Assembly: GCF_004376175.1 (NCBI RefSeq)
Contig: NZ_SNUY01000045.1
Location: 1-28,711 of the forward strand
Direction: 5' to 3'
DNA from: Halalkalibacterium halodurans
GTDB lineage: Bacteria > Bacillota > Bacilli > Bacillales > Bacillaceae_D
DNA: 28,711 nucleotides
Position 1 is the first letter of the stretch, and each line of letters starts with the position of its first letter. The position numbers were made by a program, and so were the translations under genes. Shown here piece after piece: positions 1,033 through 25,317 of this stretch. Under the pieces are notes generated by a model. That model was given only the letters and a program-made list of their open reading frames with translations, had not been told where the DNA came from and searched no databases.

Positions 1033-1316
1033 GTCGCACTCTACATGGGTGCGTGGATTGAAATTGCTACTTCATGCGGCTGCTACGGAGTGACGGCAAA
1101 GTCGCACTCTATATGAGTGCGTGGATTGAAATAATGTCTTGATTTTGCCATATGCCGTACCTGTGTAAGTCGCACTCTACACGAGTGCGTGGATTGAAAT
1201 CGTCAGCGTACGAAGATCCTTCATAGCCGTAGAAGTCGCACTCTACATGGGTGCGTGGATTGAAATTTTGATATTGCCGTATTTCTATCTCCGTTCGCTG
1301 CGTCGCACTCTACATA
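1033..1316 (+). CRISPR. Small I-C type CRISPR array: 4 variant repeats plus a truncated fifth
   Basis: 32-nt repeats start at 1033, 1101, 1169 and 1235. They read GTCGCACTCTACATGGGTGCGTGGATTGAAAT, with stem/loop variants TATATGAG and TACACGAG. Spacers are 36, 36, 34 and 35 nt. At 1302 only GTCGCACTCTACAT remains. Orientation matches the main array. Confidence 0.9.
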
Positions 1317-1436
1317 GCGCCCCTGCACCAACATCATCGAGCGGTGACACCCGATGACACCTAAAACTTTCATCATACGTGTCGCCATTCTCCATAAAGT
1401 GGCCCCTGTAAACAAGCGAACTTATACTCATGTGAA

Positions 1437-1706: not shown

Positions 1707-4109
1707 ATGTACATTGCCCATATTCGAGAGGTTGATAAGGTGATTCAGACCCTTAAAGAGCACTTGTGCGGTGTCCAATGTTTAGCCGAAACGTTTGGAG
1801 CGAAATTGAGGTTACAACATGTAGCTGGATTGGCGGGGCTCCTCCACGATCTAGGGAAATACACGAATGAATTCAAAGATTATATCTATAAAGCTGTGTT
1901 TGAGCCCGAGTTAGCTGAGAAAAAGAGAGGTCAAGTTGACCATTCCACGGCAGGGGGCAGATTGTTATACCAAATGCTTCATGACAGAGAGAACTCCTTC
2001 CACGAAAAGCTTCTTGCCGAAGTTGTTGGTAATGCCATTATTTCACACCATTCTAACTTGCAAGACTACATTTCTCCCACCATAGAATCAAACTTCCTTA
2101 CGCGTGTTTTAGAAAAAGAACTGCCAGAATATGAGTCAGCGGTTGAGCGATTTTTTCAAGAGGTCATGACAGAAGCGGAATTGGCTAGGTATGTAGCTAA
2201 AGCGGTAGACGAAATAAAGCAGTTCACGGATAACAGCCCAACACAAAGCTTTTTCCTCACAAAATACATTTTCAGTTGTTTAATTGATGCGGATCGTACG
2301 AATAGTCGAATGTTTGATGAACAAGCTAGGGAAGAAGAACCGACTCAGCCTCAACAGTTGTTTGAGCACTATCATCAACAATTGCTCAACCATCTTGCTT
2401 CATTAAAAGAAAGCGACAGTGCGCAGAAACCAATTAATGTACTGCGGTCTGCTATGTCTGAGCAGTGCGAGTCATTTGCCATGCGGCCATCTGGTATTTA
2501 CACGCTATCCATTCCGACAGGGGGTGGGAAAACGCTGGCTAGCCTTCGCTACGCATTAAAACATGCTCAAGAATATAACAAACAGAGAATTATTTATATT
2601 GTTCCTTTTACTACAATCATAGAACAGAATGCCCAAGAAGTAAGAAACATCTTGGGAGATGACGAAAACATTTTAGAACATCATTCAAATGTAGTCGAAG
2701 ACAGCGAGAACGGTGACGAGCAAGAGGATGGAGTCATCACGAAAAAGGAGCGGCTGAGGCTCGCCCGAGACAATTGGGATCGCCCGATTATCTTTACCAC
2801 CCTTGTCCAATTCCTCAATGTTTTTTATGCGAAAGGTAACCGTAATACGCGGCGTTTACACAACTTAAGCCATTCCGTCTTAATTTTTGATGAAGTGCAG
2901 AAAGTACCGACCAAATGCGTTTCTCTTTTTAACGAAGCCCTTAACTTTCTTAAAGAGTTTGCACATTGCAGTATTCTTCTCTGTACAGCGACTCAACCTA
3001 CCCTCGAAAATGTAAAACATAGTCTCCTGAAAGACCGGGATGGGGAAATCGTGCAGAATTTGACTGAAGTCTCCGAAGCTTTTAAACGAGTTGAGATTCT
3101 AGATAAAACGGATCAGCCAATGACCAATGAGAGGTTAGCAGAATGGGTTAGAGACGAGGCGCCATCATGGGGCAGTACGCTCATCATTCTGAATACCAAA
3201 AAGGTTGTCAAAGACTTGTATGAAAAGCTAGAGGGTGGGCCTTTGCCAGTTTTCCATTTAAGTACATCGATGTGCGCTGCTCACCGCAAGGACCAGTTAG
3301 ATGAAATTCGGGCATTGCTTAAAGAAGGTACTCCGTTTATTTGCGTGACCACTCAATTGATTGAAGCAGGGGTCGACGTCAGCTTTAAATGTGTGATCCG
3401 CTCACTTGCTGGACTCGATTCAATTGCTCAAGCGGCTGGGAGATGCAATCGACATGGGGAAGAGCAGTTGCAATACGTATACGTGATTGATCATGCGGAG
3501 GAAACGTTATCGAAGTTGAAAGAAATTGAGGTTGGGCAGGAGATTGCCGGAAATGTCCTTGCCAGATTTAAAAAGAAGGCAGAGAAATATGAAGGGAATT
3601 TGCTCTCTCAAGCAGCAATGCGTGAATACTTTCGATATTACTACAGTAAAATGGACGCTAATTTAAATTACTTTGTCAAAGAAGTCGACAAAGACATGAC
3701 CAAGCTTTTGATGAGTCATGCTGTGGAAAATAGCTATGTCACCTACTATCAAAAAAAGACAGGTACTCATTTCCCTCTCTTATTAAATGGAAGCTATAAG
3801 ACGGCAGCTGACCATTTTCGCGTCATTGATCATAATACGACCTCGGCTATCGTCCCATACGGAGAAGGCCAGGACATTATTGCTCAATTAAACAGTGGAG
3901 AGTGGGTTGACGACTTATCAAAGGTGTTGAAAAAGGCGCAGCAGTATACAGTCACCCTTTATTCACAAGAAATTGACCAGTTAAAAAAGGAAGGCGCCAT
4001 CGTTATGCATTTGGACGGTATGGTGTATGAATTAAAGGAAAGCTGGTATAGCCACGAGTACGGAGTTGATTTCAAAGGAGAAGGCGGGATGGACTTTATG
4101 TCATGGTAA
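1707..4109 (+). CDS. cas3: Cas3 HD nuclease / SF2 helicase
   Basis: 800-aa ORF. It has an N-terminal HD region (HDLGKY, ISHHSNL, DADRTNS), Walker A-like PTGGGKT and an FDEVQ box. The SD GGAG lies 8 nt before the ATG, and it is the first gene of a I-C cas operon. Confidence 0.95.
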   Translation: MYIAHIREVDKVIQTLKEHLCGVQCLAETFGAKLRLQHVAGLAGLLHDLGKYTNEFKDYIYKAVFEPELAEKKRGQVDHSTAGGRLLYQMLHDRENSFHEKLLAEVVGNAIISHHSNLQDYISPTIESNFLTRVLEKELPEYESAVERFFQEVMTEAELARYVAKAVDEIKQFTDNSPTQSFFLTKYIFSCLIDADRTNSRMFDEQAREEEPTQPQQLFEHYHQQLLNHLASLKESDSAQKPINVLRSAMSEQCESFAMRPSGIYTLSIPTGGGKTLASLRYALKHAQEYNKQRIIYIVPFTTIIEQNAQEVRNILGDDENILEHHSNVVEDSENGDEQEDGVITKKERLRLARDNWDRPIIFTTLVQFLNVFYAKGNRNTRRLHNLSHSVLIFDEVQKVPTKCVSLFNEALNFLKEFAHCSILLCTATQPTLENVKHSLLKDRDGEIVQNLTEVSEAFKRVEILDKTDQPMTNERLAEWVRDEAPSWGSTLIILNTKKVVKDLYEKLEGGPLPVFHLSTSMCAAHRKDQLDEIRALLKEGTPFICVTTQLIEAGVDVSFKCVIRSLAGLDSIAQAAGRCNRHGEEQLQYVYVIDHAEETLSKLKEIEVGQEIAGNVLARFKKKAEKYEGNLLSQAAMREYFRYYYSKMDANLNYFVKEVDKDMTKLLMSHAVENSYVTYYQKKTGTHFPLLLNGSYKTAADHFRVIDHNTTSAIVPYGEGQDIIAQLNSGEWVDDLSKVLKKAQQYTVTLYSQEIDQLKKEGAIVMHLDGMVYELKESWYSHEYGVDFKGEGGMDFMSW

Positions 4110-4113
4110 AAGA

Positions 4114-4133
4114 CCTATCTTATTGCAGATAGG
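4114..4133. terminator. 7-bp hairpin just after the cas3 stop. On the minus strand it is followed by UCUUUU.
   Basis: CCTATCT (4114-4120), loop TATTGC, AGATAGG (4127-4133). The plus-strand tail is CTTTCGT and the minus-strand tail is TCTTTTA. Confidence 0.4.
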
Positions 4134-4154
4134 CTTTCGTACATACTTATTATT

Positions 4155-4186
4155 ACTTCAATCCACGCACTCGTATAGAGTGCGAC
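4155..4186 (-). repeat. Solitary CRISPR repeat in inverted orientation between cas3 and cas5
   Basis: The minus strand reads GTCGCACTCTATACGAGTGCGTGGATTGAAGT, 27/32 identical to the array repeat. The stem CGCACTC/GAGTGCG is intact and the 11-nt handle is 10/11. Confidence 0.9.
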
Positions 4187-4269
4187 ATCATGCTGTGGAA
4201 GTTATTCATTGCTCAAGCTCAATCCCTAATTAAGAATTAATTTATGACAATTGAATCAGATTAGAACTT

Positions 4270-4298
4270 ATTCTAAAAAATTTGGATTGATTTTTCAA
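4270..4298 (-). promoter_or_regulatory. Candidate sigmaA promoter for the antisense crRNA-like RNA
   Basis: On the minus strand: TTGAAA (4298->4293), a 17-nt spacer, then TAGAAT (4275->4270). Confidence 0.45.
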
Positions 4299-4317
4299 TA
4301 AAAAGTAAGTACGTACG
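4294..4317 (+). promoter_or_regulatory. Candidate Cascade binding site: TTC PAM plus a partial protospacer matching the crRNA-like RNA
   Basis: TTC lies at 4294-4296. Then 4297-4317, AATAAAAAGTAAGTACGTACG, is compared with the guide AATAATAAGTATGTACGAAAG. The mismatches are at positions 6, 12, 18 and 20. Confidence 0.55.
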
Positions 4318-4365
4318 TTTCCCACCTTGACTGCATATATTTAGTGCAGAGAGGAGGAAAAAAGA

Positions 4366-4443
4366 ATGATAACAGTTCTAATTAGCGTAAAAATCGAGAT
4401 TCTCTACCCAAAAATTTTATTACGAATAGTAAAAGCAATCTAA
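4366..4443 (+). CDS. 25-codon micro-ORF (MITVLISVKIEILYPKILLRIVKAI) with a consensus SD. Function unknown; it may not be translated.
   Basis: AGGAGG at 4352-4357 sits 8 nt before the ATG at 4366, and TAA is at 4441-4443. The ORF is too short for the ORF track. Confidence 0.3.
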   Translation: MITVLISVKIEILYPKILLRIVKAI

Positions 4444-4460
4444 AAGAGAATTTCTGAGAA

Positions 4461-4500
4461 TATCGCAGTCTGATTAAAGGAATACATTCAGGCTGCGATA
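4461..4500 (+). other. Hairpin immediately upstream of the cas5 SD
   Basis: TATCGCAGTCTGA (4461-4473) pairs with TTCAGGCTGCGATA (4487-4500) with one mismatch. No U-run follows, and the cas5 SD AGGAGG starts at 4510. Confidence 0.3.
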
Positions 4501-4517
4501 CCCCATAAAGGAGGTGA

Positions 4518-5237
<720 letters not shown>

Positions 5238-5238
5238 A

Positions 5239-7122
5239 ATGAGTTGGTTGCTTCACCTATACGAAACCTATGAAGCCAATCTCGATCAGGTTGGGAAAAC
5301 GGTGAAAAAGGGAGAGGATCGAGAATACACATTGCTGCCGATCTCCCATACGACCCAAAATGCTCATATCGAAGTAACACTTGACGAAGATGGCGACTTT
5401 CTAAGAGCAAAAGCATTAACGAAAGAGAGCACGTTAATCCCTTGTACAGAAGAGGCTGCCAGTCGCTCAGGTTCAAAGGTTGCACCGTACCCTCTTCACG
5501 ATAAGCTTAGCTATGTTGCTGGTGATTTTGTCAAATACGGAGGAAAGATCAAAAATCAAGACGATGCTCCTTTTGACACCTATATAAAAAATTTAGGTGA
5601 GTGGGCCAATTCCCCGTATGCGACGGAGAAGGTGAAGTGCATTTATACGTATTTGAAAAAAGGGCGATTGATTGAAGACTTGGTCGACGCAGGTGTCCTT
5701 AAGCTCGATGAAAACCAACAATTGATCGAAAAATGGGAAAAGCGATATGAAGAGCTACTGGGGGAAAAGCCCGCTATTTTTTCAAGTGGTGCTACCGATC
5801 AAGCGAGTGCTTTTGTGAGATTCAATGTTTTTCACCCTGAGTCGATCGACGATGTTTGGAAAGACAAAGAGATGTTTGATTCATTTATTTCTTTTTATAA
5901 TGACAAATTAGGCGAAGAGGATATTTGTTTCGTCACAGGGAACAGGCTTCCTAGCACAGAACGCCATGCAAATAAGATCCGTCATGCGGCGGATAAGGCA
6001 AAATTAATATCAGCTAATGATAACTCTGGTTTTACCTTCCGTGGGCGATTTAAAACAAGTCGAGAAGCCGTGGGCATTAGCTATGAGGTTTCTCAAAAGG
6101 CCCATAATGCTTTGAAATGGCTCATTCATCGCCAAAGTAAAAGCATTGATGATCGTGTGTTTCTTGTTTGGAGTAATGATAACAGTCTTGTGCCTAACCC
6201 AGATGAGGATGCGGTAGACATCATGAAGCATGCCAACCGTGAGTTAGAAAGAGATCCAGATACAGGGCAAATTTTTGCAGGTGAAGTTAAGAAAGCGATC
6301 GGCGGCTATCGGAGTGACTTGAACTATCAACCAGAGGTTCATATTCTCGTTCTTGATTCAGCAACGACTGGGAGAATGGCCGTTCTTTATTATCGAAGTC
6401 TCAATAAAGAACTCTATTTGAATCGTTTAGAGGCGTGGCATGATTCGTGTGCATGGGAGCACCGGTATCGAAGGGACGAAAAGGAGTTTATTTCGTTTTA
6501 TGGGGCACCTGCAACGAAGGATATTGCATTTGCCGCTTATGGACCGAGAGCGAGTGAAAAGGTCATAAAAGGCTTAATGGAACGAATGCTTCCTTGTATT
6601 GTCGATGGGCGTCGGGTCCCAAAGGATATTGTTAGAAGTGCCTTCCAACGGGCTTCAAATCCGGTCTCGATGGAGCGCTGGGAATGGGAAAAAACATTAA
6701 GTATCACATGTGCCCTTATTAGAAAAATGCACATTGAACAAAAGGAGGAATGGGGCGTGCCACTTGATAAAAGCTCAACGGACCGCAGCTACTTGTTTGG
6801 ACGCTTGCTGGCTGTTGCTGATGTGTTGGAGCGAGGGGCTCTCGGTAAGGACGAAACAAGAGCTACCAATGCTATTCGTTATATGAACTCATATTCAAAA
6901 AATCCAGGACGTACGTGGAAAACGATTCAGGAAAGCTTGCAGCCGTACCAAGCCAAACTCGGAACTAAAGCGACCTATTTATCAAAGCTAGTCGACGAGA
7001 TCGGCGATCAATTTGAGCCAGGGGACTTTAACAACAACCCTCTGACGGAACAATATTTGCTTGGGTTTTATAGTCAACGTCGTGAGCTTTATAAGAAAAA
7101 AGAGGAGGAGACCAACCAATGA
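5239..7122 (+). CDS. cas8c: Cas8c (Csd1), I-C large subunit
   Basis: ORF track 5230..7122. The ATG at 5239 lies 8 nt after GGAGG (5226-5230) and is preferred over the GTG at 5230. The stop overlaps the cas7 start (ATGA). Confidence 0.9.
   Translation: MSWLLHLYETYEANLDQVGKTVKKGEDREYTLLPISHTTQNAHIEVTLDEDGDFLRAKALTKESTLIPCTEEAASRSGSKVAPYPLHDKLSYVAGDFVKYGGKIKNQDDAPFDTYIKNLGEWANSPYATEKVKCIYTYLKKGRLIEDLVDAGVLKLDENQQLIEKWEKRYEELLGEKPAIFSSGATDQASAFVRFNVFHPESIDDVWKDKEMFDSFISFYNDKLGEEDICFVTGNRLPSTERHANKIRHAADKAKLISANDNSGFTFRGRFKTSREAVGISYEVSQKAHNALKWLIHRQSKSIDDRVFLVWSNDNSLVPNPDEDAVDIMKHANRELERDPDTGQIFAGEVKKAIGGYRSDLNYQPEVHILVLDSATTGRMAVLYYRSLNKELYLNRLEAWHDSCAWEHRYRRDEKEFISFYGAPATKDIAFAAYGPRASEKVIKGLMERMLPCIVDGRRVPKDIVRSAFQRASNPVSMERWEWEKTLSITCALIRKMHIEQKEEWGVPLDKSSTDRSYLFGRLLAVADVLERGALGKDETRATNAIRYMNSYSKNPGRTWKTIQESLQPYQAKLGTKATYLSKLVDEIGDQFEPGDFNNNPLTEQYLLGFYSQRRELYKKKEEETNQ
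6757..7122 (+). CDS. cas11: Candidate internally translated Cas11c small subunit (same frame as cas8c)
   Basis: An in-frame AAGGAGG (6742-6748) sits 8 nt upstream of an in-frame GTG (6757). An in-frame ATG at 6727 has no SD. Internal Cas11 translation from cas8 genes is established for I-C systems. Confidence 0.5.
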   Translation: MPLDKSSTDRSYLFGRLLAVADVLERGALGKDETRATNAIRYMNSYSKNPGRTWKTIQESLQPYQAKLGTKATYLSKLVDEIGDQFEPGDFNNNPLTEQYLLGFYSQRRELYKKKEEETNQ

Positions 7123-7970
7123 CTATACTTGATCACAAAATTGATTTTGCTGTTATTCTATCTGTTACTAAAGCCAATCCGAATGGAGATCCCCTTAACG
7201 GAAACCGCCCACGTCAAAATTACGATGGGCATGGGGAGATTTCTGATGTTGCGATCAAGCGTAAAATTCGCAATCGTTTGCTAGATATGGAAGAACCTAT
7301 TTTTGTTCAATCTGATGACCGTAAAGCAGATTCTTTTAAAAGTTTGCGAGATCGTGCAGATTCGAATCCTGAGTTAGCCAAAATGCTGAAAGCAAAAAAT
7401 GCGTCTGTTGATGAATTTGCAAAAATTGCTTGTCAAGAGTGGATGGATGTGCGTAGTTTTGGACAAGTATTTGCGTTTAAAGGCTCCAATTTATCCGTTG
7501 GTGTTCGCGGTCCTGTGTCGATTCACACAGCAACGAGCATTGATCCTATTGATATTGTTAGCACCCAGATTACAAAAAGTGTTAACTCGGTCACGGGTGA
7601 TAAACGTAGCTCAGACACCATGGGAATGAAGCACCGTGTCGACTTTGGTGTTTATGTGTTCAAAGGGAGCATTAACACGCAGCTTGCAGAGAAAACAGGC
7701 TTTACGAATGAAGATGCGGAAAAAATCAAGCAGGCACTCATCACCCTGTTTGAAAATGACAGCTCTTCCGCCCGCCCTGATGGGAGCATGGAGGTCCATA
7801 AAGTGTACTGGTGGGAGCATTCTTCAAAGCTTGGACAATACTCTTCTGCCAAAGTGCATCGTTCATTAAAAATTGAATCAAAGACGGATACACCTAAGAG
7901 TTTTGATGATTATGCCGTTGAACTATATGAATTAGATGGCTTGGGTGTTGAAGTGATTGATGGTCAGTAA
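7119..7970 (+). CDS. cas7: Cas7c (Csd2), Cascade backbone subunit
   Basis: 283-aa ORF whose ATG overlaps the cas8c stop. Its position and size match I-C Cas7. Confidence 0.92.
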   Translation: MTILDHKIDFAVILSVTKANPNGDPLNGNRPRQNYDGHGEISDVAIKRKIRNRLLDMEEPIFVQSDDRKADSFKSLRDRADSNPELAKMLKAKNASVDEFAKIACQEWMDVRSFGQVFAFKGSNLSVGVRGPVSIHTATSIDPIDIVSTQITKSVNSVTGDKRSSDTMGMKHRVDFGVYVFKGSINTQLAEKTGFTNEDAEKIKQALITLFENDSSSARPDGSMEVHKVYWWEHSSKLGQYSSAKVHRSLKIESKTDTPKSFDDYAVELYELDGLGVEVIDGQ

Positions 7971-8619
7971 TGAAGAAGACCGCTATTTGCTGTTGTCGGG
8001 ACTCCAGCACTTTCAGTTTTGCAAACGACAGTGGGCCTTGATTCACATCGAGCAGCAGTGGGAAGAGAATGTCAGGACGATTGAAGGGCAGCATTTGCAT
8101 AAAAAAGCCGACCAACCGTTTATGAAAGAAAAGCGGGGAAGCAAATTGACCGTTCGCGCCATGCCCATTCAATCTAAGAACCTTCAAATAAGTGGTATAT
8201 GCGATGTAGTGGAATTTGTTCAGGATTCAGAAGGCATCGAGTTGTCGGGTGTGTCAGGCTGCTATAAGGCATTTCCTGTTGAATACAAGCGAGGGAAGCC
8301 AAAGAAGGGCGATGAAGATATTGTTCAATTGGTGGCTCAAGCGATGTGCTTAGAGGAAATGCTTGTTTGTCGCATTGATAAAGGATATTTGTTTTACAAC
8401 GAGATCAAGCACCGCGTCGAAGTGCCAATCACGGATGCTTTAAGAGATAAAGTAGTACAGATGGCAAAAGAGATGCACCATTACTATGAAAATCGTCATA
8501 CACCGAAAGTGAAGACAGGCCCTTTTTGCAACAATTGCTCGTTGCAATCTATTTGCTTGCCGAAGCTGATGAATAAACGCTCTGTGAAACGTTACATTGA
8601 GGGGAGGCTGAGCGAATGA
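7960..8619 (+). CDS. cas4: Cas4 (RecB-like nuclease with an Fe-S cysteine cluster)
   Basis: The ORF track starts at TTG 7957 and an ATG follows at 7960. It has an N-terminal FCKRQW region, a C-terminal CNNCSLQSIC cysteines motif and a DVVE/EYKRGK nuclease core. Confidence 0.9.
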   Translation: MVSNEEDRYLLLSGLQHFQFCKRQWALIHIEQQWEENVRTIEGQHLHKKADQPFMKEKRGSKLTVRAMPIQSKNLQISGICDVVEFVQDSEGIELSGVSGCYKAFPVEYKRGKPKKGDEDIVQLVAQAMCLEEMLVCRIDKGYLFYNEIKHRVEVPITDALRDKVVQMAKEMHHYYENRHTPKVKTGPFCNNCSLQSICLPKLMNKRSVKRYIEGRLSE

Positions 8620-9647
8620 AAAAGCTATTAAACACTCTATATGTGACTCAGCCTGATACGTATTTGTCCCTTGATGGTGATAATGTGGTATTACTCAAAG
8701 AGCAAGAAAAGCTTGGCAGGTTACCCCTTCACAATTTAGAGGCGATCGTCAGCTTTGGTTATACAGGGGCTAGCCCTGCACTCATGGGGTATTGCGCAGA
8801 GCGAAACATTTCGATCACCTTTTTAACGAAAAATGGGCGTTTTTTGGCGAGAGTGGTCGGGGAAAGTCGAGGCAATGTGGTTTTAAGAAAGACACAATAC
8901 CGCCTGTCTGAGAACGATCAAGAGTCCACAAAAATTGCCCGAAACTTTATCACAGGGAAGGTATACAACAGCAAATGGATGCTTGAACGGATGACGAGGG
9001 AACATCCGCTTCGGGTCAATGTTGAACAATTTAAAGCAACCTCTCAACTTCTGTCCGTTATGATGCAAGAGATCCGCAATTGTGACAGCTTAGAAAGTTT
9101 ACGTGGATGGGAAGGGCAGGCGGCGATCAACTATAATAAAGTGTTTGATCAGATGATCTTGCAGCAGAAAGAGGACTTCGCTTTTCATGGACGTTCAAGA
9201 AAGCCGCCAAAGGACAATGTGAATGCGATGTTATCATTTGCTTACACGTTACTCGCCAATGATGTAGCTGCTGCGCTCGAAACGGTGGGTCTTGATGCTT
9301 ATGTCGGTTTTATGCATCAAGACCGTCCTGGCCGGGCGTCCCTTGCCCTGGATCTTATGGAAGAACTAAGGGGCCTTTATGCTGATCGATTTGTTCTTTC
9401 CCTTATTAATCGTAAGGAAATGACAGCGGATGGATTTTATAAAAAGGAAAACGGAGCTGTCCTGATGACGGATGAAGCACGTAAAACGTTTTTGAAAGCA
9501 TGGCAAACCAAGAAACAGGAAAAAATCACGCATCCATATCACGGAGAAAAAATGTCGTGGGGGCTAGTACCTTATGTACAGGCTTTGCTGCTGGCGCGCT
9601 TTCTTCGAGGAGATTTAGACGAATATCCGCCATTTCTGTGGAAGTAG
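8616..9647 (+). CDS. cas1: Cas1 integrase
   Basis: 343-aa ORF whose ATG overlaps the cas4 stop. NTLYVTQPDTYLSLDGDNVV is a typical Cas1 N-terminus. Confidence 0.95.
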   Translation: MKKLLNTLYVTQPDTYLSLDGDNVVLLKEQEKLGRLPLHNLEAIVSFGYTGASPALMGYCAERNISITFLTKNGRFLARVVGESRGNVVLRKTQYRLSENDQESTKIARNFITGKVYNSKWMLERMTREHPLRVNVEQFKATSQLLSVMMQEIRNCDSLESLRGWEGQAAINYNKVFDQMILQQKEDFAFHGRSRKPPKDNVNAMLSFAYTLLANDVAAALETVGLDAYVGFMHQDRPGRASLALDLMEELRGLYADRFVLSLINRKEMTADGFYKKENGAVLMTDEARKTFLKAWQTKKQEKITHPYHGEKMSWGLVPYVQALLLARFLRGDLDEYPPFLWK

Positions 9648-9655
9648 GTGAAAGC

Positions 9656-9946
9656 ATGCTTGTTTTAATTACGTATGATGTCCAAACCTCAAGCATGGGA
9701 GGCACGAAAAGGCTTCGAAAAGTGGCCAAAGTGTGCCAAAATTATGGACAACGAGTGCAAAACTCTGTCTTTGAGTGCATTGTGGATTCAACTCAATTAA
9801 CGTCGTTAAAATTAGAACTCACTAGTTTAATTGACGAAGAAAAAGACAGTTTGCGCATCTACCGATTAGGAAACAACTATAAAACCAAAGTAGAGCATAT
9901 TGGAGCCAAGCCATCTATCGATGTAGAGGACCCTCTTATCTTTTAA
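9656..9946 (+). CDS. cas2: Cas2
   Basis: MLVLITYDV... starts at ATG 9656, giving 96 aa. The longer track ORF from 9500 overlaps the cas1 3' end and is not credible. Confidence 0.93.
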   Translation: MLVLITYDVQTSSMGGTKRLRKVAKVCQNYGQRVQNSVFECIVDSTQLTSLKLELTSLIDEEKDSLRIYRLGNNYKTKVEHIGAKPSIDVEDPLIF

Positions 9947-10127: not shown

Positions 10128-13100
10128 GTCGCACTCTTCATGGGTGCGTGGATTGAAATCTAACGAATTAAATTACATCGTCGAAGAAATCACGTCGCAC
10201 TCTTCATGGGTGCGTGGATTGAAATTGCGACTCCCCACTCACCATCACAAACGATCCTTGTCGCACTCTTCATGGGTGCGTGGATTGAAATGCGCCTCTT
10301 CCATCGTGATCCCCTCAGCCTTGGCGTCGCACTCTTCATGGGTGCGTGGATTGAAATAAGACATTAGCTTTTTTCTAAAAGCAAGAAAGCGAGTCGCACT
10401 CTTCATGGGTGCGTGGATTGAAATTTTTGTGATGAGATTCGTGGAGCCCAAGCGTTCAACGTCGCACTCTTCATGGGTGCGTGGATTGAAATTTTCGCAT
10501 AAACAGACATAGCTTTGACTTGCCCTGTCGCACTCTTCATGGGTGCGTGGATTGAAATTAATTGAAGTAGCTTCAAGGCTGAAAGAGGAACGGTCGCACT
10601 CTTCATGGGTGCGTGGATTGAAATACCGTATGCGTATTGTTAAGGTTTTGGAAGAACAGTCGCACTCTTCATGGGTGCGTGGATTGAAATCAGAAGCGAG
10701 GGAGCTAGCGGACAAGATTACAACGTCGCACTCTTCATGGGTGCGTGGATTGAAATCAGTCGGCTTATATCAAATTTTTAGAAAAAGAAGTCGCACTCTT
10801 CATGGGTGCGTGGATTGAAATCCTCCGCCTTTGTAGTAAATCTTTTTATCGCCAGGTCGCACTCTTCATGGGTGCGTGGATTGAAATATTAGAGCGAAAT
10901 CGCTAAAGAAAGTATTTAAAGTCGCACTCTTCATGGGTGCGTGGATTGAAATATACTCACTACATTGCAAGATGTAGGCGCTACTGGTCGCACTCTTCAT
11001 GGGTGCGTGGATTGAAATGCCCGAAAAACCTTGAAGTTGTCTGGAAGGACACGTCGCACTCTTCATGGGTGCGTGGATTGAAATTGATGACGTTTCTATA
11101 TCATCTAATGGTTTTATACGTCGCACTCTTCATGGGTGCGTGGATTGAAATTGGCTATCATCGCAGGATACATTAGTTTTTTGGGGTCGCACTCTTCATG
11201 GGTGCGTGGATTGAAATTTTGGATGAAACCATGAGAGAAATGCAGGCAGAAAGTCGCACTCTTCATGGGTGCGTGGATTGAAATCATCTTTGCCAACTCC
11301 GTCACCGCGAATCAGATAGGTCGCACTCTTCATGGGTGCGTGGATTGAAATTTGCAGCAAACATTCTATGTTTTAAAAAGCGAAAGTCGCACTCTTCATG
11401 GGTGCGTGGATTGAAATTCTCTTGTACCCCCTCAAGTTAGAGGAGATAATGTCGCACTCTTCATGGGTGCGTGGATTGAAATTTCAATCCCGACCGCAAT
11501 TCCTTCTGGGATCCATGTCGCACTCTTCATGGGTGCGTGGATTGAAATGTCTATTGTAAACTCACCTAAAGTATTATAAAATGTCGCACTCTTCATGGGT
11601 GCGTGGATTGAAATTGAGCCACACTAGAGTCTACCTATTCCTCCACCGGTCGCACTCTTCATGGGTGCGTGGATTGAAATGATTAAGTGATGTAAGTTGC
11701 CGTATTCGTCGACTCGTCGCACTCTTCATGGGTGCGTGGATTGAAATATTTGCTACATCGTGATATGTTCCCGTCCATTGTGTCGCACTCTTCATGGGTG
11801 CGTGGATTGAAATATTCATATCGATCCACAGATCGCCTAAGGCGGGAGTCGCACTCTTCATGGGTGCGTGGATTGAAATGATACCACACGATTTATAGAT
11901 ACCATCGATGACGGTCGCACTCTTCATGGGTGCGTGGATTGAAATTCGTGAGCTTTCAATAGCGGTGTTAGCTGATCCATGTCGCACTCTTCATGGGTGC
12001 GTGGATTGAAATCTTGCGTGACTTTCTTTTCCGCGTATTCTTGTACGTCGCACTCTTCATGGGTGCGTGGATTGAAATTCCGCTTTCAAACCCTCTTACA
12101 TAGTTCCTTCCACGTCGCACTCTTCATGGGTGCGTGGATTGAAATAATTAAGTGATGTAAGTTGCCGTATTCGTCGACTGTCGCACTCTTCATGGGTGCG
12201 TGGATTGAAATGCCCCGCCAATGGCTTTATCCATTCCACCTTTAGGTCGCACTCTTCATGGGTGCGTGGATTGAAATCTCCTGGTGAGTTGACATATAGA
12301 TTAATAGTGTCGTCGCACTCTTCATGGGTGCGTGGATTGAAATCTCCTGGTGAGTTGACATATAGATTAATAGTGTCGTCGCACTCTTCATGGGTGCGTG
12401 GATTGAAATCTCGAATAACCTAAACCTCGTTGAATACTTATCTCGTCGCACTCTTCATGGGTGCGTGGATTGAAATGTAACTTATCTGCAGATAGAATAT
12501 TCTTGTACCAAGTCGCACTCTTCATGGGTGCGTGGATTGAAATAATTAAGTGATGTAAGTTGCCGTATTCGTCGACTGTCGCACTCTTCATGGGTGCGTG
12601 GATTGAAATCTTCTGTGTCACGGTACTTATCGACTTCAAAAAGCACGTCGCACTCTTCATGGGTGCGTGGATTGAAATCCGTCCATTGTCTGACATGACG
12701 TTGTGACATCCATGTCGCACTCTTCATGGGTGCGTGGATTGAAATCATCCTGTAAGGTTTTATTTAGCTCGATAAAGGGTCGCACTCTTCATGGGTGCGT
12801 GGATTGAAATATCCGTACCATACAATTCTTGCGTAAAAAATGTTGTCGCACTCTTCATGGGTGCGTGGATTGAAATTATACAGCGGAAATCCAAGAAGCC
12901 TTTAAGCCAGAGTCGCACTCTTCATGGGTGCGTGGATTGAAATTTTTTTAGCACGCTCATATGCACTTATAATGTCCGTCGCACTCTTCATGGGTGCGTG
13001 GATTGAAATGAGAAAGTCAACGTATCGTGCTGTGATTCTGCGCCCGTCGCACTCTTCATGGGTGCGTGGATTGAAATTTTCGAGAAAGTCAACGTATCGA

Positions 13101-13401
13101 GCGGTTATCCTGTCGCACTCTTCATGGGTGCGTGGATTGAAATTCCTGCCCACTCTAATAATCTAGCTTGGTTTTCTGTCGCACTCTTCATGGGTGCGTG
13201 GATTGAAATAAGATAAAACTCAAAGACTTGAAGGACGTGAACAGGTCGCACTCTTCATGGGTGCGTGGATTGAAATTAACACAAGCCGGTTTAATTCTAG
13301 TGGCGAAAACGGTCGCACTCTTCATGGGTGCGTGGATTGAAATATGCCTCTCAATCATGCTTGATCCGGGTGACACTCATGAACGTGTATTCGAATAAAA
13401 T
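10128..13401 (+). CRISPR. Main I-C CRISPR array: 49 identical 32-nt repeats, 48 spacers (33-37 nt) and a degenerate terminal repeat
   Basis: GTCGCACTCTTCATGGGTGCGTGGATTGAAAT was counted at 49 positions, with the first at 10128 and the last at 13312-13343. The degenerate copy GTGACACTCATGAACGTGTATTCGAATAAAAT at 13370-13401 matches about 17/32. Confidence 0.98.
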
Positions 13402-18103: not shown

Positions 18104-18487
18104 CTATTGACTTTTCTCTTCTTTTTCCCTCTTGAGTCTTCTGAACAGTTCGAGCTGTTCGTCTAGAAAGCGAAGTTCCTCATCGTCGAGGTCTTTGTAT
18201 TTGTAGGATAGCGGGTGTTCGTGCACTGAGCTGTTGGCGTACGGTTCTTTTGCATCGGTTTCTCCTGCTAGGAAGGCGATGGAGACGTTGTATTTCTGGG
18301 CGAGTTGTTTCAGTTTGCCGATGGACGGCTCGTTGCGGCCTTGTTCATAGAAGCCGTAGGCGCTTTCGGTGATGTTAAGAAATGAGGCAACTTCCTGTTG
18401 GGTGAGGTTGTGGGCATTTCGCAGTTCGCGTAAACGGTCTTTAAGTTCAGCCATAAGCATGTCCTTTCTTTCGTTATTATTTTCCAT
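18104..18487 (-). CDS. XRE-family helix-turn-helix transcriptional regulator
   Basis: The HTH is LTQQEVASFLNITESAYGFYEQGRNEPSIGKLKQLAQKYNVS. The true start is probably ATG 18460 or 18454, with AAAGGA upstream, rather than 18487. Confidence 0.8.
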   Translation of the reverse strand: MENNNERKDMLMAELKDRLRELRNAHNLTQQEVASFLNITESAYGFYEQGRNEPSIGKLKQLAQKYNVSIAFLAGETDAKEPYANSSVHEHPLSYKYKDLDDEELRFLDEQLELFRRLKREKEEKSQ

Positions 18488-19023: not shown

Positions 19024-20574
19024 ATGAATAAGATATGGGTTTTTGTCGCTGTTGTTTTACTGCTCGTTGGCTGTGGCGGTAACCAGGAAGAAGTGGGTTC
19101 TTCGGAGAGCGAGACGGATTCGAATGATGAAGCGGATCGGACGTTAACAATCGCCATCGGAACAGACATCGTGTCGTTTGATATTCATGACCATAACAAT
19201 ACGTCCACAGAAGCGGTTCACGATAACATGTTCAATTACCTCTTTAAACGGGATGAGAACAATGTCATTCAACCAGAGCTTGTGGAGACGTTTGAATCAA
19301 TCGATGATCGGACGGTTGAGATGACCTTAAAAGAAGGCGTCACCTTCCATAACGGGGACCCGCTCACGTCAGAGGATGTGAAGTTTACCCTTGAGCGCGT
19401 CGCCACCGATGATACGTTACAAGAGTATCCGAACTACAAGCAGATCAAGGAAGTGGAGATTAAGGACGAGTTAACGTTTCGAGTCATTACCCATGAACCG
19501 GAACCATCCTTGTTTCACCGTTTGTCACGGCTTGGTTCAGGAATTTTACCGAAAACCTACATCGAGGAAGAGGGATGGGATCACTTTCTCGCCAATCCGG
19601 TCGGGACAGGCCCGTACCAATTTAAAGAGTGGGTCCGTGATTCGAAAATTGTGTTGACGCCTTATGAGAATTACTTTGAAGGAGCTGTGGACGAATGGGA
19701 TGAGGTCGTGTTTCGCGTCATTCCGGAAAACTCCACTCGGGTAGCGGAGCTGCTTACAGGAGGTGCCGACATTGCTGTCAACATTCCGTCCGCTGATTGG
19801 GAGCGGGTAGAGGAAAACGAAGGGACATCGATGAAAACCGAGACGTCCAACCGAACGATTATGCTCATTTTACGGGCAACGGAAGGCTATCCGACTGCTG
19901 ACGTCCGCGTGCGTCAAGCGCTTGATCTTGCGATTGATAACAAGGCGATCACAGAAAATGTGTTGCGCGGCGGCGGGATTCCGACGAAAACGCGCGTTGC
20001 GCCAGGCAATTTTGGCGCAGAAGAGTCGCTTTACAATACGTACGATTATGATGTGGAGAAAGCGAAACAATTGCTGAAGGAGGCTGGTTATCCTGACGGG
20101 TTTGAGATGACGCTCCATTCACCGCATGGACGTTATTTACAGGATGCTGAAGTTGCGGAGATGATCGCGGGGATGCTGCAGGCAATTAATGTAGAGGTTC
20201 GTCTAGAGTTTATGGAGTGGAGCAATTTTGTCGAGATGCGGCAGGCAGGAGAAAACAAAGACGCCTATTTGATTGGCCTCGGCAACTCTATGTTTGATGG
20301 TGCTTATTCCGTTGACTGGCACCGCTCCGATCGTTTTGTCGGTGAGACGGATTACAAAAACGAAGAGATTGACGCACTGTTAGAAGCATCCGCCGTGAAC
20401 ATGGATGAGGAGGAACGGGCGAAACAAATTCAGGAGATTCAACGGATTGCCGCGGAAGAGGTCCCTCATATTATGCTACACCAAGAAACGCTCCATTACG
20501 GGGTGAGTGATCGGATTGCATTTGTCCCGTCCATGGATGAAATGATTTATGTTCCAGCGATTACGAGAAAATGA
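19024..20574 (+). CDS. Peptide/nickel ABC transporter substrate-binding lipoprotein (family 5 SBP, DppA/OppA-like)
   Basis: 516-aa ORF with a lipobox LLVGC after the signal peptide. It is followed by two permease genes and two ATPase genes. Confidence 0.88.
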   Translation: MNKIWVFVAVVLLLVGCGGNQEEVGSSESETDSNDEADRTLTIAIGTDIVSFDIHDHNNTSTEAVHDNMFNYLFKRDENNVIQPELVETFESIDDRTVEMTLKEGVTFHNGDPLTSEDVKFTLERVATDDTLQEYPNYKQIKEVEIKDELTFRVITHEPEPSLFHRLSRLGSGILPKTYIEEEGWDHFLANPVGTGPYQFKEWVRDSKIVLTPYENYFEGAVDEWDEVVFRVIPENSTRVAELLTGGADIAVNIPSADWERVEENEGTSMKTETSNRTIMLILRATEGYPTADVRVRQALDLAIDNKAITENVLRGGGIPTKTRVAPGNFGAEESLYNTYDYDVEKAKQLLKEAGYPDGFEMTLHSPHGRYLQDAEVAEMIAGMLQAINVEVRLEFMEWSNFVEMRQAGENKDAYLIGLGNSMFDGAYSVDWHRSDRFVGETDYKNEEIDALLEASAVNMDEEERAKQIQEIQRIAAEEVPHIMLHQETLHYGVSDRIAFVPSMDEMIYVPAITRK

Positions 20575-20622
20575 TTGGAAAAGCCAGAGCTTACCTGGCT
20601 TGTGGAAAAAGGAGGGGGATTT

Positions 20623-21540
20623 GTGGCCGCGTTTGTGTTCAAACGATTGGCGGAAATGATTCCTGTGCTGTTTATCATTTCCTTTATTGTGTTTGCACTC
20701 GTCTTTGTAGCCGGTAATCCGGTGGCGCTTATGCTGCCGGAGGATGCTTCTCAGGAAGACATTGACCAGCTGACCGCCTCCCTCGGGTTGGACCAGCCGT
20801 TTTTAGTTCAATACGGTAAGTACTTGCTCAACTTAATTCAAGGGGATTTTGGCGAGTCGTTCCGTTATAACACAAGCGCTCTGCCGCTCGTACTCGAGAG
20901 GCTTCCAGCTACTCTTGAGCTGGCGGTCGCCGCGTTAGTGCTTGCGGTGGCGATGGCGATTCCCCTTGGTGTTTGGTCAGCGACGAAGCAACATTCGCCC
21001 GTTGACTTGCTTGCGGCTGGAGGGTCTGTCATTGGCAAGGCGATGCCGAACTTTTGGCTTGGAATTATGCTCATTTTGATTTTTTCTGTCATGCTTGGCT
21101 GGTTCCCAGTGTCAGGGCGGGGAACGCTCGGTCATTTAGTGCTTCCAGCGATGACGTTGGCGACAGGGATTGCGGCGGAGATCACACGATTGCTTCGGTC
21201 GAGCATGATCGAAATTTTAAATCAGGATTACATTCGAACGGCGAGAAGCAAAGGGATTCGCGAGGGAATGGTCGTGTACAAGCATGCGTTTCGCAATTCC
21301 CTCATTCCTCTCGTCACGATTGTCGCGTTGCAAACATCGACCGTGGTCGGTGGAACGTTGATTACGGAAACGGTGTTTTCGTGGCCAGGACTCGGACAGC
21401 TGCTCATTCAAGCCGTTCATATCCGAGACATGGCAATTGTGCAGGCGTGTGTGTTCGTCATTGCGATCTTAGTTATTTTCATGAACTTAGTAGCCGACGT
21501 TTTGTATCGGCTGCTCGATCCGCGGATCAAATACGAGTAG
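20623..21540 (+). CDS. ABC transporter permease (DppB/OppB-like)
   Basis: The track ORF starts at 20575. An in-frame GTG at 20623 follows AAAGGAGGGGGA and gives the usual N-terminus ...FVFKRLAEMIPVLF. It is a multi-TM protein. Confidence 0.88.
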   Translation: MAAFVFKRLAEMIPVLFIISFIVFALVFVAGNPVALMLPEDASQEDIDQLTASLGLDQPFLVQYGKYLLNLIQGDFGESFRYNTSALPLVLERLPATLELAVAALVLAVAMAIPLGVWSATKQHSPVDLLAAGGSVIGKAMPNFWLGIMLILIFSVMLGWFPVSGRGTLGHLVLPAMTLATGIAAEITRLLRSSMIEILNQDYIRTARSKGIREGMVVYKHAFRNSLIPLVTIVALQTSTVVGGTLITETVFSWPGLGQLLIQAVHIRDMAIVQACVFVIAILVIFMNLVADVLYRLLDPRIKYE

Positions 21541-21556
21541 AGGAGGTGCCGGATTA

Positions 21557-22504
21557 ATGGAAACAGAAACGACGGTCACACGCCTTATGCGGCAAAGCAG
21601 GACAATGGGCTCAAAGCGTCTACTTGCTTGGGGGCGGCGTCTGATACGGAGCAAGACGGGGACGGTGGGCTTGATCATTGTGTTGGTAGTCTTGCTTTTG
21701 GCCGCTTTTGCCGACGTTCTAGCACCTCACAACCCACATGAGGTAAATCCAGCCATGATGTTAAAGCCACCTGCCTGGTTGGACGGGGGCTCCAGCGAAC
21801 ACTTTCTTGGTACCGATCATTTGGGGCGCGACATCTGGAGTCGAATGGTGTATGGTTCGCGGATCTCGCTACTCGTCGGAGTGACAGCTGTCGTCCTCGC
21901 TGGGCTTATTGGCGTGACGGTTGGAATGGTCGCCGGATTTTATGGTGGCTGGTTGGATACCGCGTTCATGCGGTTAGTGGATTCGTTTTTGTCTATACCC
22001 AACATTTTGTTGGCTCTCGTCATTTTAAGTGTCTTCGGTCCAGGGGTTTGGACATTGATTTTCGTGCTTGGTGTTACAAACTGGGTGAACTATGCTCGGC
22101 TTGTCCGCGGAGAAGTGCTGTCGATTAAGGAAAGGGAGTTTGTGAAGGCAGCGCGGGCAATTGGCGTAAAAAATCGCATGGTGATGGTTCGCCATCTGTT
22201 GCCGAATGTCGTGTCTCCATTTATCGTCATTTCTACGTTAAGTGTGGCAACAACCATTATTTTAGAGGCGTCCCTCAGCTTTTTAGGGTTAGGGATACAG
22301 CCTCCCGATATTTCGTGGGGCGGTATTTTAAGTGATGGGCGCGACTATATTGCGACAAGCTGGTGGCTTGCAACCTTTCCGGGTCTTGCGATTACGTTGA
22401 CGGTGTTAGGCATCATTTTCCTAGGCGACTGGCTCCGAGATGTGCTTGACCCGCGCGGCCAAAGCCGGCGAGGTAATGTCAAAAGTTCTATGAAAACTCA
22501 CTAG
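21557..22504 (+). CDS. ABC transporter permease (DppC/OppC-like); the last 10 codons and the stop are supplied by the inserted IS
   Basis: 315-aa ORF. The IS left end starts at 22472, so GNVKSSMKTH* is IS-encoded. In the restored sequence the protein ends ...DPRGQSRR*. Confidence 0.88.
   Translation: METETTVTRLMRQSRTMGSKRLLAWGRRLIRSKTGTVGLIIVLVVLLLAAFADVLAPHNPHEVNPAMMLKPPAWLDGGSSEHFLGTDHLGRDIWSRMVYGSRISLLVGVTAVVLAGLIGVTVGMVAGFYGGWLDTAFMRLVDSFLSIPNILLALVILSVFGPGVWTLIFVLGVTNWVNYARLVRGEVLSIKEREFVKAARAIGVKNRMVMVRHLLPNVVSPFIVISTLSVATTIILEASLSFLGLGIQPPDISWGGILSDGRDYIATSWWLATFPGLAITLTVLGIIFLGDWLRDVLDPRGQSRRGNVKSSMKTH
22464..22471. repeat. Target-site duplication, left copy (GCCGGCGA)
   Basis: An identical 8-mer at 24305-24312 directly flanks the other IS end. 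Confidence 0.8.
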
Positions 22505-24304: not shown

Positions 24305-24312
24305 GCCGGCGA
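24305..24312. repeat. Target-site duplication, right copy (GCCGGCGA)
   Basis: See 22464-22471. It is followed by TAG, the original stop of the permease gene, and by the SD of the next gene. Confidence 0.8.
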
Positions 24313-24327
24313 TAGAGGGGGGATAGA

Positions 24328-25317
24328 ATGAAAAAGGATACGCTTCTTTCAGTACGAGAGCTGAAAACATACTTTTATACGGAAAGCGGTGCGGTTCCAT
24401 CGGTCAATGGGGTGTCCTTTGAAGTTAAACATGGGGAAACCGTGGCCGTTGTTGGTGAATCGGGCTGTGGCAAAAGCGTCACCTCCCTTTCCATTATGGG
24501 GCTTGTCCGCTCGCCGGGGAAAATCGTCGGCGGTGACATTCGATTCAATGGTCAAGACTTGATAACCATCAGCGAAAGGGAGTACCGGAAGCTAAGGGGA
24601 AATGAGTTGTCGATGATTTTTCAAGAGCCCCTGACGTCGCTCAATCCTTTGTTTACGATTGGCAACCAGCTAGGCGAAGTGATTTTGCAACATCAACAAG
24701 TGACAAAAGAGGAAGCGAAGCAGAAGGGGATCGAGATGTTAAAAAAGGTGGGGATTCCCCGTGCGGAGCAGGTCTATCGTTCCTATCCGCACCAATTAAG
24801 TGGCGGTATGCGCCAACGGGTGATGATCGCGATGGCCCTCGCATGTGAGCCGAAGCTACTCATTGCTGATGAGCCGACGACCGCCCTCGATGTGACGATC
24901 CAAGCGCAAATTTTGCAGCTTATGCGTAAGCTAGTGAAAGAAAACGATACGGCGATTTTGCTCATTACCCATGATCTTGGGGTGGTGGCCGAAATGGCTG
25001 ATACGGTGATCGTCATGTATGCTGGTCAAGTGGTGGAGCAAGCTGATGTGTTCACGTTGTTTGCGACTCCGGCCCATCCGTATACGCAAGGTCTGCTCGC
25101 AAGTACGCCAAACATTCATGCCAGTGGAGAAAAACTGCAATCGATTGAGGGAACCGTACCGACCCATGAGACGATGCCAAAAGGCTGTCGCTTTTTCCCC
25201 CGTTGTCCGCATGCTACTGAGCAGTGCGTGCATCAAGAGCCACCATTAATGAAAACCGGACGAGGACAGCACGTTCGCTGCTGGCTGTTCGATGGGAAGG
25301 AGGCGGCTTCTGGTTGA
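24328..25317 (+). CDS. ABC transporter ATP-binding protein (DppD/OppD-like)
   Basis: Walker A is GESGCGKS, the signature is LSGGMRQR and Walker B is [14 protein letters not shown]-terminal oligopeptide-type extension has CRFFPRCP. Confidence 0.92.

Follow-up and report, generated by a model that had tools for sequence, protein, structure and literature searches.

A solitary-repeat guide in the cas3–cas5c gap of the Halalkalibacterium halodurans type I-C CRISPR locus: a predicted crRNA-like repressor of Cascade and its co-evolving target

When a CRISPR locus carries, quite apart from its arrays, one lone copy of its repeat in the space between two cas genes, the question naturally arises as to whether that copy is mere debris or forms part of the working machinery. 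Such a case is found in Halalkalibacterium halodurans (B. halodurans below), within a stretch of 28,711 nucleotides (nt) that makes up positions 1 to 28,711 of contig NZ_SNUY01000045.1 (assembly GCF_004376175.1) and is referred to throughout as the window. The window contains a complete type I-C locus (as identified using NCBIfam), and the 417-bp gap between cas3 and cas5c holds a solitary repeat followed by a short spacer-like segment on the minus strand, together with a site on the plus strand that closely resembles this segment. An earlier reading made from the letters of the DNA (here called the sequence-only reading) had proposed that this is a guide of the CreA or CreR kind, used by Cascade to bind at a promoter-proximal TTC site, and that proposal has since gained support from the covariation of guide and site, the invariance of the TTC and the mismatches at positions 6, 12 and 18, all of which are described below. 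It seems to us likely that the gap encodes a CRISPR RNA (crRNA)-like RNA built on a solitary repeat unit (SRU; such RNAs have also been called crlRNA, or, in related systems, CreR), through which Cascade would repress its own synthesis without cleavage.

The solitary repeat and its matching site

The solitary repeat (psiR; 4186->4155, minus strand; GTCGCACTCTATACGAGTGCGTGGATTGAAGT) is a near-intact I-C repeat, identical at 27 of 32 positions to the repeat of the main array and at 30 of 32 to the repeat variants of a short array at 1033-1330, i.e. it is closer to these than to the main-array consensus. Its perfect 7-bp stem, CGCACTC/GAGTGCG (4184->4166), encloses a 5-nt loop and runs directly into an 11-nt 5'-handle, UGGAUUGAAGU (4165->4155), implying that the hairpin and handle nucleotides needed for processing by Cas5c and for loading into Cascade have been kept, as one would expect of a type I crRNA-like regulatory RNA. 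There is only one handle-like site in the gap, and no second repeat was found there. After the handle comes a pseudo-spacer (psiS; 4154->4134, minus strand; AATAATAAGTATGTACGAAAG) of 21 nt, of which positions 1-17 are the guide, and on its 3' side there lies a terminator hairpin that is unrelated to the repeat; indeed the last base of psiS (4134) is already part of the terminator stem. This stem (GCCUAUCU/AGAUAGGU, 4134->4113, 8 bp) is followed by CUUUU, so that hairpin and U-tract together occupy 4108..4134 on the minus strand, and although the hairpin was missed by a terminator scan it is clear on folding, the RNA 4190->4100 having a predicted energy of -25.8 kcal/mol (z -3.35). Since cas3 converges on the solitary repeat unit the hairpin is common to both, doubling on the plus strand as the terminator of cas3.

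The site that psiS resembles occupies 4297..4317 on the plus strand (AATAAAAAGTAAGTACGTACG), its first base lying 143 nt from that of the guide (4154 to 4297), and it is immediately preceded by 5'-TTC-3' (4294..4296) in the place of a protospacer-adjacent motif (PAM); TTC is given as the preferred PAM of B. halodurans I-C, with CTC second best, by Leenay 2016 as cited in PMC5602111. The two sequences match at positions 1-5, 7-11, 13-17, 19 and 21 and differ at 6, 12, 18 and 20, corresponding to paired segments at 4297-4301, 4303-4307 and 4309-4313, and there is no similarity between psiS and the target region beyond position 21. On re-reading the sequence, every coordinate and base that the sequence-only reading had given for the repeat, the 21-mer, the target and the TTC proved to be right, as did its geometry, with the PAM on the 5' side of the guide-like strand. 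As to the extent of the match, which had been taken as 1-21, the three 5-nt segments stand, whereas positions 19 and 21 probably match by accident, since the pairing maintained across relatives ends at 17.

That such a match should have arisen by chance was thought implausible from the outset, and the numbers bear this out. When both strands of the 28.7-kb window are scanned, TTC together with the 15-nt segmented match occurs at a single site, as likewise does TTC together with the 10-nt seed. The number of TTC-flanked segmented matches expected in the gap, given its own base composition, is about 8e-8, while a 15-nt segmented match turned up in only 1 of 200,000 shuffles of the gap even without the PAM being demanded. 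A partial, seed-proximal match beside the cognate PAM is characteristic of crRNA-like regulatory RNAs. psiS does not have the form of an ordinary self-targeting spacer or array remnant, its 21 nt and its pairing up to position 17 contrasting with the 33-37 nt of the spacers in the array.

Comparison across type I-C loci

A scan for Cas5c in 185,579 species genomes gave 80 loci, at 48-89% identity (where individual loci need to be distinguished they are given by our own numbers, L001 onwards). Among the Bacillota-like loci whose Cas5c identity is at least 64%, which number roughly 45, about 35 have one minus-strand repeat-like unit upstream of cas5. The handle G.GGATTG.A is invariant in 32 loci, and 33 of 34 have a stem, 3 bp or longer, that runs exactly up to the handle, shifted registers being mostly without a stem. 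Stems were analysed using an anchored stem finder (a MAFFT alignment of psiR stayed ungapped, with the 5' stem arms unaligned), and include the compensatory variants CGCAC/GTGCG, CGCTT/AAGCG, CACTT/AAGTG, CGTAC/GTACG and CTCTTCAT/ATGAAGAG. The position, handle and hairpin of the unit are thus conserved across genera whose Cas5c proteins are only 64-89% identical.

About 16 related loci have an equivalent 3' hairpin, which often shares the CCT(A/G)TCT stem. The full stem CCT(A/G)TCT...AGA(T/C)AGG is kept in L001, L002, L006-L008, L013, L015, L016, L021, L023, L024, L033-L035 and L044; this is unusual for a plain terminator, and because the conservation extends across genera whose guides are unrelated it hints at a sequence-specific role.

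A guide with a plus-strand target lying between the unit and cas5 was found in 28 loci (the window and its allele L082 being counted), and the PAM of these targets is TTC in all 28. Guide and target are identical at positions 1-5 in 27/27 loci, at positions 7-11 in 24-27 of the 27 and at positions 13-17 in 22-25 of them; at position 6 they agree in just 4/28 loci, and at positions 12 and 18 in 7/28 each, while beyond 18 their identity is at background, about 0.38 (27 loci). The sequence-only reading had proposed a comparison of this kind in advance, and the result, obtained on 27 further loci, is the one anticipated: the mismatches are at 6, 12 and 18, and guide and site co-vary, with 87% of the between-locus differences in the guides, which fall into six unrelated sequence families, being compensated in the target. 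When guides are scored against gaps, cognate pairs reach 13-15 of a possible 15, whereas non-cognate pairs have a mode of 8 and attain 13 or more in only 1 of 564 cases. The element also emerges from a search that is agnostic as to the guide, in which every TTC+17 site in the 700 nt upstream of cas5 was compared with every other 17-mer; this gave 23 segmented pairs with an I-C handle before the second copy, and none in shuffled gaps, the other pairs coming from genuine arrays, from mirror-image versions of these pairs and from a few palindromes.

Natural alleles provide a further view. Contigs encoding a Cas5c that is 100% identical to that of the window have three alleles of the cas3–cas5 gap. 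In L081, L084 and L085 the gap (4100-4526) is identical to that of the window, whereas in L082/L083 (NCBI CP040441.1; 2590-3000) the cassette has been replaced from the last codons of cas3 to the Shine–Dalgarno (SD) sequence of cas5, and now holds a different small open reading frame (ORF) as well as a different guide, AAAAAAAATAAAAAGTGGAAA, and target, TTC-AAAAATAATAAGAAGTGAAGG. Agreement between these two once more covers 1-5, 7-11 and 13-17, with mismatches at 6, 12 and 18. Guide and target have both been replaced and still match, and therefore they travel together as a unit; the gap, as judged from these alleles, behaves as an exchangeable module. In the third allele, L086 (1900-1952), the whole gap is gone, the stop codon of cas3 lying 42 nt before the start of cas5. 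Compensation, separation of the scores and the swapped allele all point in the same direction, namely to co-evolution of guide and target.

The positions that would be flipped out may not be neutral. At 6, 12 and 18 guide and target match more rarely than base composition predicts (18/84, against an expected 0.38; binomial P about 0.0009, with shared ancestry uncorrected), and across the 28 pairs 16 guides have T at position 6 and 20 targets have A there, despite turnover at the neighbouring paired positions. This bias, together with the low matching, may reflect selection rather than drift.

Could the unit nevertheless have no RNA-guided function, being a remnant of a decaying array whose match to the target is a chance repeat or a repeat like that of a protein operator? 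Repeat debris does occur in this locus, because the short array upstream of cas3 (1033-1330) is decaying and its last repeat is truncated. However, the chance probability of the match is of the order of 1e-5 to 1e-7, neither debris nor an operator would be expected to have a TTC PAM, a 6-nt periodicity and covariation spanning 28 loci and six families, and in most loci the unit has a promoter and terminator of its own (as predicted). These observations, together with the cross-genus conservation of position, handle and hairpin already described, make this explanation extremely improbable. Conversely, it is very probable, given the comparative evidence, that the guide/target pair is functional. 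Taken together, 28 loci, six guide families, compensated changes and pairing in three 5-nt segments would mean that every sixth position is disregarded by I-C Cascade, and that selection holds the pairing at 17 nt, the length that serves for binding without cleavage. Regulators of this predicted class are widespread among the I-C loci of Bacillota, which published surveys do not highlight.

Some variations on this arrangement were also seen. In L005, L009, L041 and L042 unit and target share a strand, the target lying 64-105 nt from cas5 with a PAM of TTC or CTC (CTC in two of them), and in Lacticaseibacillus L072 (about 3770-3830) there is a solitary repeat on the same strand as cas5.

Promoters, the proposed circuit and the small ORF

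What the guide might control is seen most clearly in those relatives where the gap is short. In eight loci (L023, L024, L028, L030, L033, L035, L044 and L080) the target is 80-99 nt from cas5, and it abuts or overlaps a TTGACA-like -35 box that is followed at the correct spacing by a -10 box and then by the SD of cas5. Among the relatives the predicted -35/-10 pair in front of cas5 starts 15-35 nt from position 1 of the target, and most of them also have an extended -10 (TGnTATAAT) on the minus strand within a few nt upstream of psiR. In the short-gap loci such divergent promoters, with a putative Cascade site on the one serving cas5, constitute the architecture of CreR.

The observed anatomy of the unit, the statistics of its match, its conservation and covariation and the adjacency of target and promoter in relatives form the basis from which we infer that an RNA is transcribed at this locus and processed by Cas5c, and that it directs binding and repression without cleavage. 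A minus-strand promoter within the gap would give rise to the crRNA-like RNA, which Cas5c would cut at the 3' base of the psiR hairpin; the product would consist of the 11-nt handle, about 17-21 nt of guide and, at its 3' end, the terminator hairpin. This RNA would load into I-C Cascade (Cas5c, Cas8c, Cas7 and Cas11c), which would recognise the TTC at 4294-4296, whereupon three 5-nt segments of the guide would pair with the minus strand across 4297-4313, with the bases at 6 and 12 flipped out and unpaired. Because the guide is short and its pairing goes no further than 17 nt, the R-loop would be incomplete and Cas3 would not be licensed, so that Cascade would simply sit at the site as a repressor. 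The site would overlap or adjoin the -35 region of the promoter for the micro-ORF described below and for cas5c-cas8c-cas7-cas4-cas1-cas2, and because these include its own genes Cascade would be repressing its own synthesis. Relief would come when crRNAs from the array titrate Cascade, or when anti-CRISPRs inactivate it.

There are, all the same, several observations that weigh against this scheme. Neither of two scans found a canonical plus-strand promoter after the target in the window, where the target is 230 nt upstream of cas5, and because none is called the regulated target is less clear here than in the short-gap relatives. Two putative plus-strand elements can be read by eye within 4327..4341, but the -35-like TTGACT (4327-4332) is without a -10 partner, the -10-like TATATT (4336-4341) has a poor -35, and the two are too close to pair with each other. 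(If TATATT is a -10, transcription would start near 4348 and the -35 position, 4313-4318, would fall on the PAM-distal end of the target; a motif CTGCATAnnnT is found at the equivalent place in L015 and L079.) Four loci (L003, L010, L016 and L026) carry the unit, yet no target was found in them, and the natural deletion in L086, with its identical Cas5c, shows the element to be dispensable. Finally, the strongest predicted promoter in the gap is not directed towards cas5 at all: it is a sigma-70-type promoter on the minus strand (4270..4298; -35 TTGAAA, 4298->4293; 17-nt spacer; -10 TAGAAT, 4275->4270), scoring 10/12 in the promoter scan, and its -35 box overlaps the PAM and the first two bases of the target. 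Because the best promoter has this strand and this overlap, the guide RNA could feed back on itself, and this could perhaps be the main effect in the window.

Taken to its conclusion, this last point would mean that Cascade bound at 4294-4317 occludes the minus-strand -35 box and has little effect on the cas genes, so that the guide is mainly self-regulating. In addition to the minus-strand promoter being the only strong prediction in the gap, similar overlaps of -35 and PAM are predicted in L017 and L019. Against this, the extended -10 on the minus strand in most relatives is directly upstream of psiR, 26-55 nt away from the target, and in those same relatives the target abuts the -35 of the plus-strand cas5 promoter; moreover, AT-rich sequence readily yields -35-like hexamers by chance. 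We regard it as distinctly unlikely that self-regulation is the principal function.

The second element that has to be considered is the micro-ORF. Between target and cas5c an SD, GAGGAGG (4351-4357), precedes 25 codons (4366-4443; MITVLISVKIEILYPKILLRIVKAI) on the plus strand, the two together spanning 4351..4443, and no other SD-led ORF lies between target and cas5c in the window. Between the micro-ORF and the SD of cas5 there is also a plus-strand stem-loop (4462..4499) of 12 bp, AUCGCAGUCUGA...UCAGGCUGCGAU, with no U-tract after it (fold -23.1 kcal/mol, z -3.15). Comparable ORFs, led by an SD, 24-39 codons long and each followed by a 10-14-bp hairpin of different sequence, are found in L082, L002, L008, L015 and L079, with more doubtful cases in L025 (where there is an analogous hairpin), L013 and L018-L020. 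The family shares a C-terminal amphipathic block, (E/D)ILKxIVE(I/V)(I/L)K (alignment A2), and a hidden Markov model of it, run against 26,295 short frames from all of the loci, matched only in cas3–cas5 gaps, adding L011 and L016. Its members lie at 4351-4499 in the window, 2805-2924 in L082, 3810-3917 in L002, 3821-3925 in L008, 3849-3923 in L015, 3805-3924 in L079, 3858-3923 in L011 and 3852-3920 in L016; about nine Bacillaceae species possess the family, and its place is always between the Cascade target and cas5c. Differences in the conserved block are distributed over the three codon positions as 43/11/66, which is a coding signature, and because of this and of the restriction of the family to these gaps the micro-ORF is probably a real small protein gene. 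A Pfam scan of seven of the peptides matched no family. In L034, where the target is 587 nt from cas5, a 97-aa ORF (3624-3917) lies between target/promoter and cas5; from its sequence alone we judged it to be transposase-like, with a helix-turn-helix.

Small ORFs in such a position call to mind the CreA/CreT modules of types I-B and I-F, in which Cascade represses a toxin through a seed-length match (PMC8501985, PMC9458426), and the sequence-only reading had indeed suggested that Cascade might autoregulate the cas genes, hold a toxin-like gene silent, or both. On an addiction-module interpretation the guide keeps the micro-ORF (4366-4443) silent and the regulation of cas5 is a by-product; the micro-ORF would be a protein toxin or a tRNA-sequestering RNA toxin, and loss or inhibition of Cascade would arrest the cell, all of which is compatible with autorepression. 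The layout resembles that of creTA, with a guide gene divergent from an SD-led small ORF that is followed by a stable stem-loop, and with Cascade as the proposed repressor through a seed-length match. CreT requires not only a strong SD and an efficient start codon but also two rare codons in succession and a stem-loop downstream (PMC8501985); the micro-ORF has the strong SD, an AUG start and the stem-loop, its family is gap-specific with a coding signature, the window member is hydrophobic, and its second codon is AUA, which accounts for only 7% of Ile codons in the genes of the window. What it does not have is two consecutive rare codons, the defining feature of CreT, and the tRNA-sequestering form of the proposal was rejected on that ground. 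Most family members are charged amphipathic peptides that do not look like membrane toxins, and the lack of a Pfam match offers no help. The ORF is missing from many loci that bear guides, including all eight of the short-gap loci, which keep the guide/target pair, and L001, the closest relative, where the pair is again kept and no ORF with an SD was found. Where present it is apparently in the transcription unit of cas5, so that derepressing Cascade would always co-express the toxin. The deletion of the cassette in L086 is compatible with joint loss of toxin and antitoxin but lends the idea no support. On this evidence an addiction module is unlikely; of the two possibilities originally raised, autorepression of the cas genes is favoured, while the toxin finds no support, given the absence of consecutive rare codons.

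A somewhat different suggestion, which we put forward only tentatively and consider rather doubtful, is that micro-ORF and stem-loop (4351-4499) are an undescribed, minimal I-C cargo encoding an amphipathic peptide that is unleashed when Cascade is titrated or inhibited. The peptide might then be a small toxin (an I-C analogue of CreTA) or an accessory to Cascade or Cas3, and the U/A mismatch at position 6 might have been selected.

The locus and its relation to known systems

Turning to the remainder of the window, cas3 (1707..4109, plus strand; HD nuclease and helicase, NCBIfam cas3_core and cas3_HD) is followed on the same strand, beyond the gap, by cas5c (4527-5237), cas8c (5230-7122), cas7 (7119-7970), cas4 (7957-8619), cas1 (8616-9647) and cas2 (ending at 9946), again identified using NCBIfam; these six genes (4527..9946, plus strand) are presumed to be the operon downstream of the regulated promoter. 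Cas5c is identical at 234 of 236 positions to PDB 4F3M (Cas5d, B. halodurans BH0337), which marks the locus as that of a B. halodurans-type strain. The main array (10128..13343, plus strand) has 49 repeats of GTCGCACTCTTCATGGGTGCGTGGATTGAAAT with spacers of 33-37 nt, and is the source of the canonical crRNAs that compete with the solitary guide. The short decaying array upstream of cas3 (1033-1330, plus strand) consists of four repeats and a truncated fifth, and adjoins the remnant of an ISLre2-family transposase (68-748). An Rfam scan of the whole window gave no match inside the cas3–cas5c gap, its sole match being a full-length BsrG (RF01412; 17653-17903, plus strand; 178.6 bits), an RNA belonging to a type I toxin-antitoxin system; alongside this match, which is unrelated to the guide/target pair, lies a gene for an HTH_3 regulator (18104-18487, minus strand). 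Further on, a transposase gene (22721-24154, minus strand) lies inside an oligopeptide ABC transporter cluster (19024-27437), after the gene for a solute-binding protein (19024-20574) and two ORFs assumed to encode permeases (20575-22504), and before two ATPase genes (24328-26312).

The B. halodurans I-C system is a biochemical model for Cas5d processing, for PAM screens and for adaptation by Cas4-Cas1-Cas2. If the proposal made here is true, built-in autorepression would alter how one views native expression, the control of autoimmunity and the response to anti-CRISPRs in this system, and the guides would supply I-C CRISPR interference with a short-guide design that is ready to use and already validated in nature. 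The family of small ORFs and the swapping of cassettes between strains are new leads.

Of the known RNAs that engage Cas proteins by way of solitary repeat units, viral Racr and the Cas-repressing Cracr (PMC10651486; bioRxiv 10.1101/2024.10.29.618823) are phage-encoded decoys or hijackers of host circuits, and Cracr phage arrays targeting I-C loci have been reported (10.1101/2024.10.29.618823); the B. halodurans unit, by contrast, is chromosomal and inside the cas operon. A pattern scan of viral contigs gave one 23-nt exact match to handle plus seed (L088, 2950-2970; IMGVR_UViG_3300003973_000056), which we judged to be coincidental rather than a viral mimic of the guide, as it is inside a 175-aa ORF and has no hairpin upstream.

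Similar in layout are the regulatory mini-arrays of types I-E, I-F1, I-D and I-B (Shmakov et al., PMC10120712), which are transcribed opposite to cas3 and have mismatches at 6 and 12. As in these, the B. halodurans unit is in the gap between cas3 and the Cascade genes, runs opposite to cas3 and has a target with cognate PAM upstream of the Cascade operon, again mismatched at 6 and 12; the mini-arrays, however, are two-repeat elements, and I-C is not among the subtypes highlighted (PMC10120712). Two degenerate repeats flanking psiS are also usual for creA, although forms with one psiR are known, e.g. in H. hispanica (PMC8501985), whereas the B. halodurans gap has one repeat only. In the case of CreR, for which autorepression has been shown with I-B, I-E and V-A effectors (bioRxiv 10.1101/2023.03.10.532045), the shared features are a degenerate repeat, a short pseudo-spacer partly complementary to the promoter region of the effector genes (a putative and weakly defined one in the window), a cognate PAM, and a proposed autorepression that senses both crRNA load and anti-CRISPRs. 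Many CreR genes have two psiR units, as compared to the one psiR and terminator hairpin of B. halodurans. That preprint also includes a supplementary figure of creA-like elements seen by eye in I-C loci, untested there (10.1101/2023.03.10.532045).

The sequence-only reading was aware of no description of such a regulator at this locus. This holds to the extent that no report linking B. halodurans to SRU, CreR or crlRNA was found in the literature searched, but the mechanism itself is already known, having been demonstrated experimentally in type I-C as well as in I-B, I-E, I-F and V-A. In the I-C work (bioRxiv 10.1101/2024.12.27.630466) experiments on SRUs, or crlRNAs, established that they repress defence genes (Nezha, Gabija and 'CRISIS'): the handle that remains after cutting by Cas5c is 11 nt long and the 3' end is in a hairpin, pairing extends over about 16 bp with a mismatch at 6 and a PAM of TTC or TTA, and the target is beside a -35 box, with the start site 37-46 bp downstream and repression of 5- to 60-fold. 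The resemblance of the B. halodurans unit to these is extensive, comprising the same subtype and cas3–cas5c location, a single psiR with its hairpin and 11-nt handle, a 3' hairpin replacing the second repeat, about 16-17 bp of pairing with mismatches at 6 and 12, a TTC PAM, and a target beside a -35 box, which is clear in the relatives and weakly defined in the window.

The differences concern what would be regulated, how the unit is placed and the host clade. Most of the I-C SRU loci are from Neisseria, and there the unit immediately precedes cas5c and governs a cargo of defence genes inserted between that gene and cas3; the B. halodurans locus does not belong with the CRISIS loci, since the only SD-led ORF between its target and cas5c is the one of 25 aa. 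Here the unit instead comes directly after cas3, converging on it, sharing its terminator and diverging from cas5c; the promoter that would be regulated precedes cas5c itself, with at most an ORF of 24-39 codons in between, and the hosts are Bacillota. Repression without cleavage has been shown by experiment for the SRUs and is predicted from sequence for the B. halodurans unit. What is new is the conservation and co-evolution of the solitary guide and its target across about 30 related Bacillota loci; as to its classification, at the level of sequence the window element, though the promoter beside its target is weakly defined, has the distinguishing features of the I-C SRU class, which is the closest known match.

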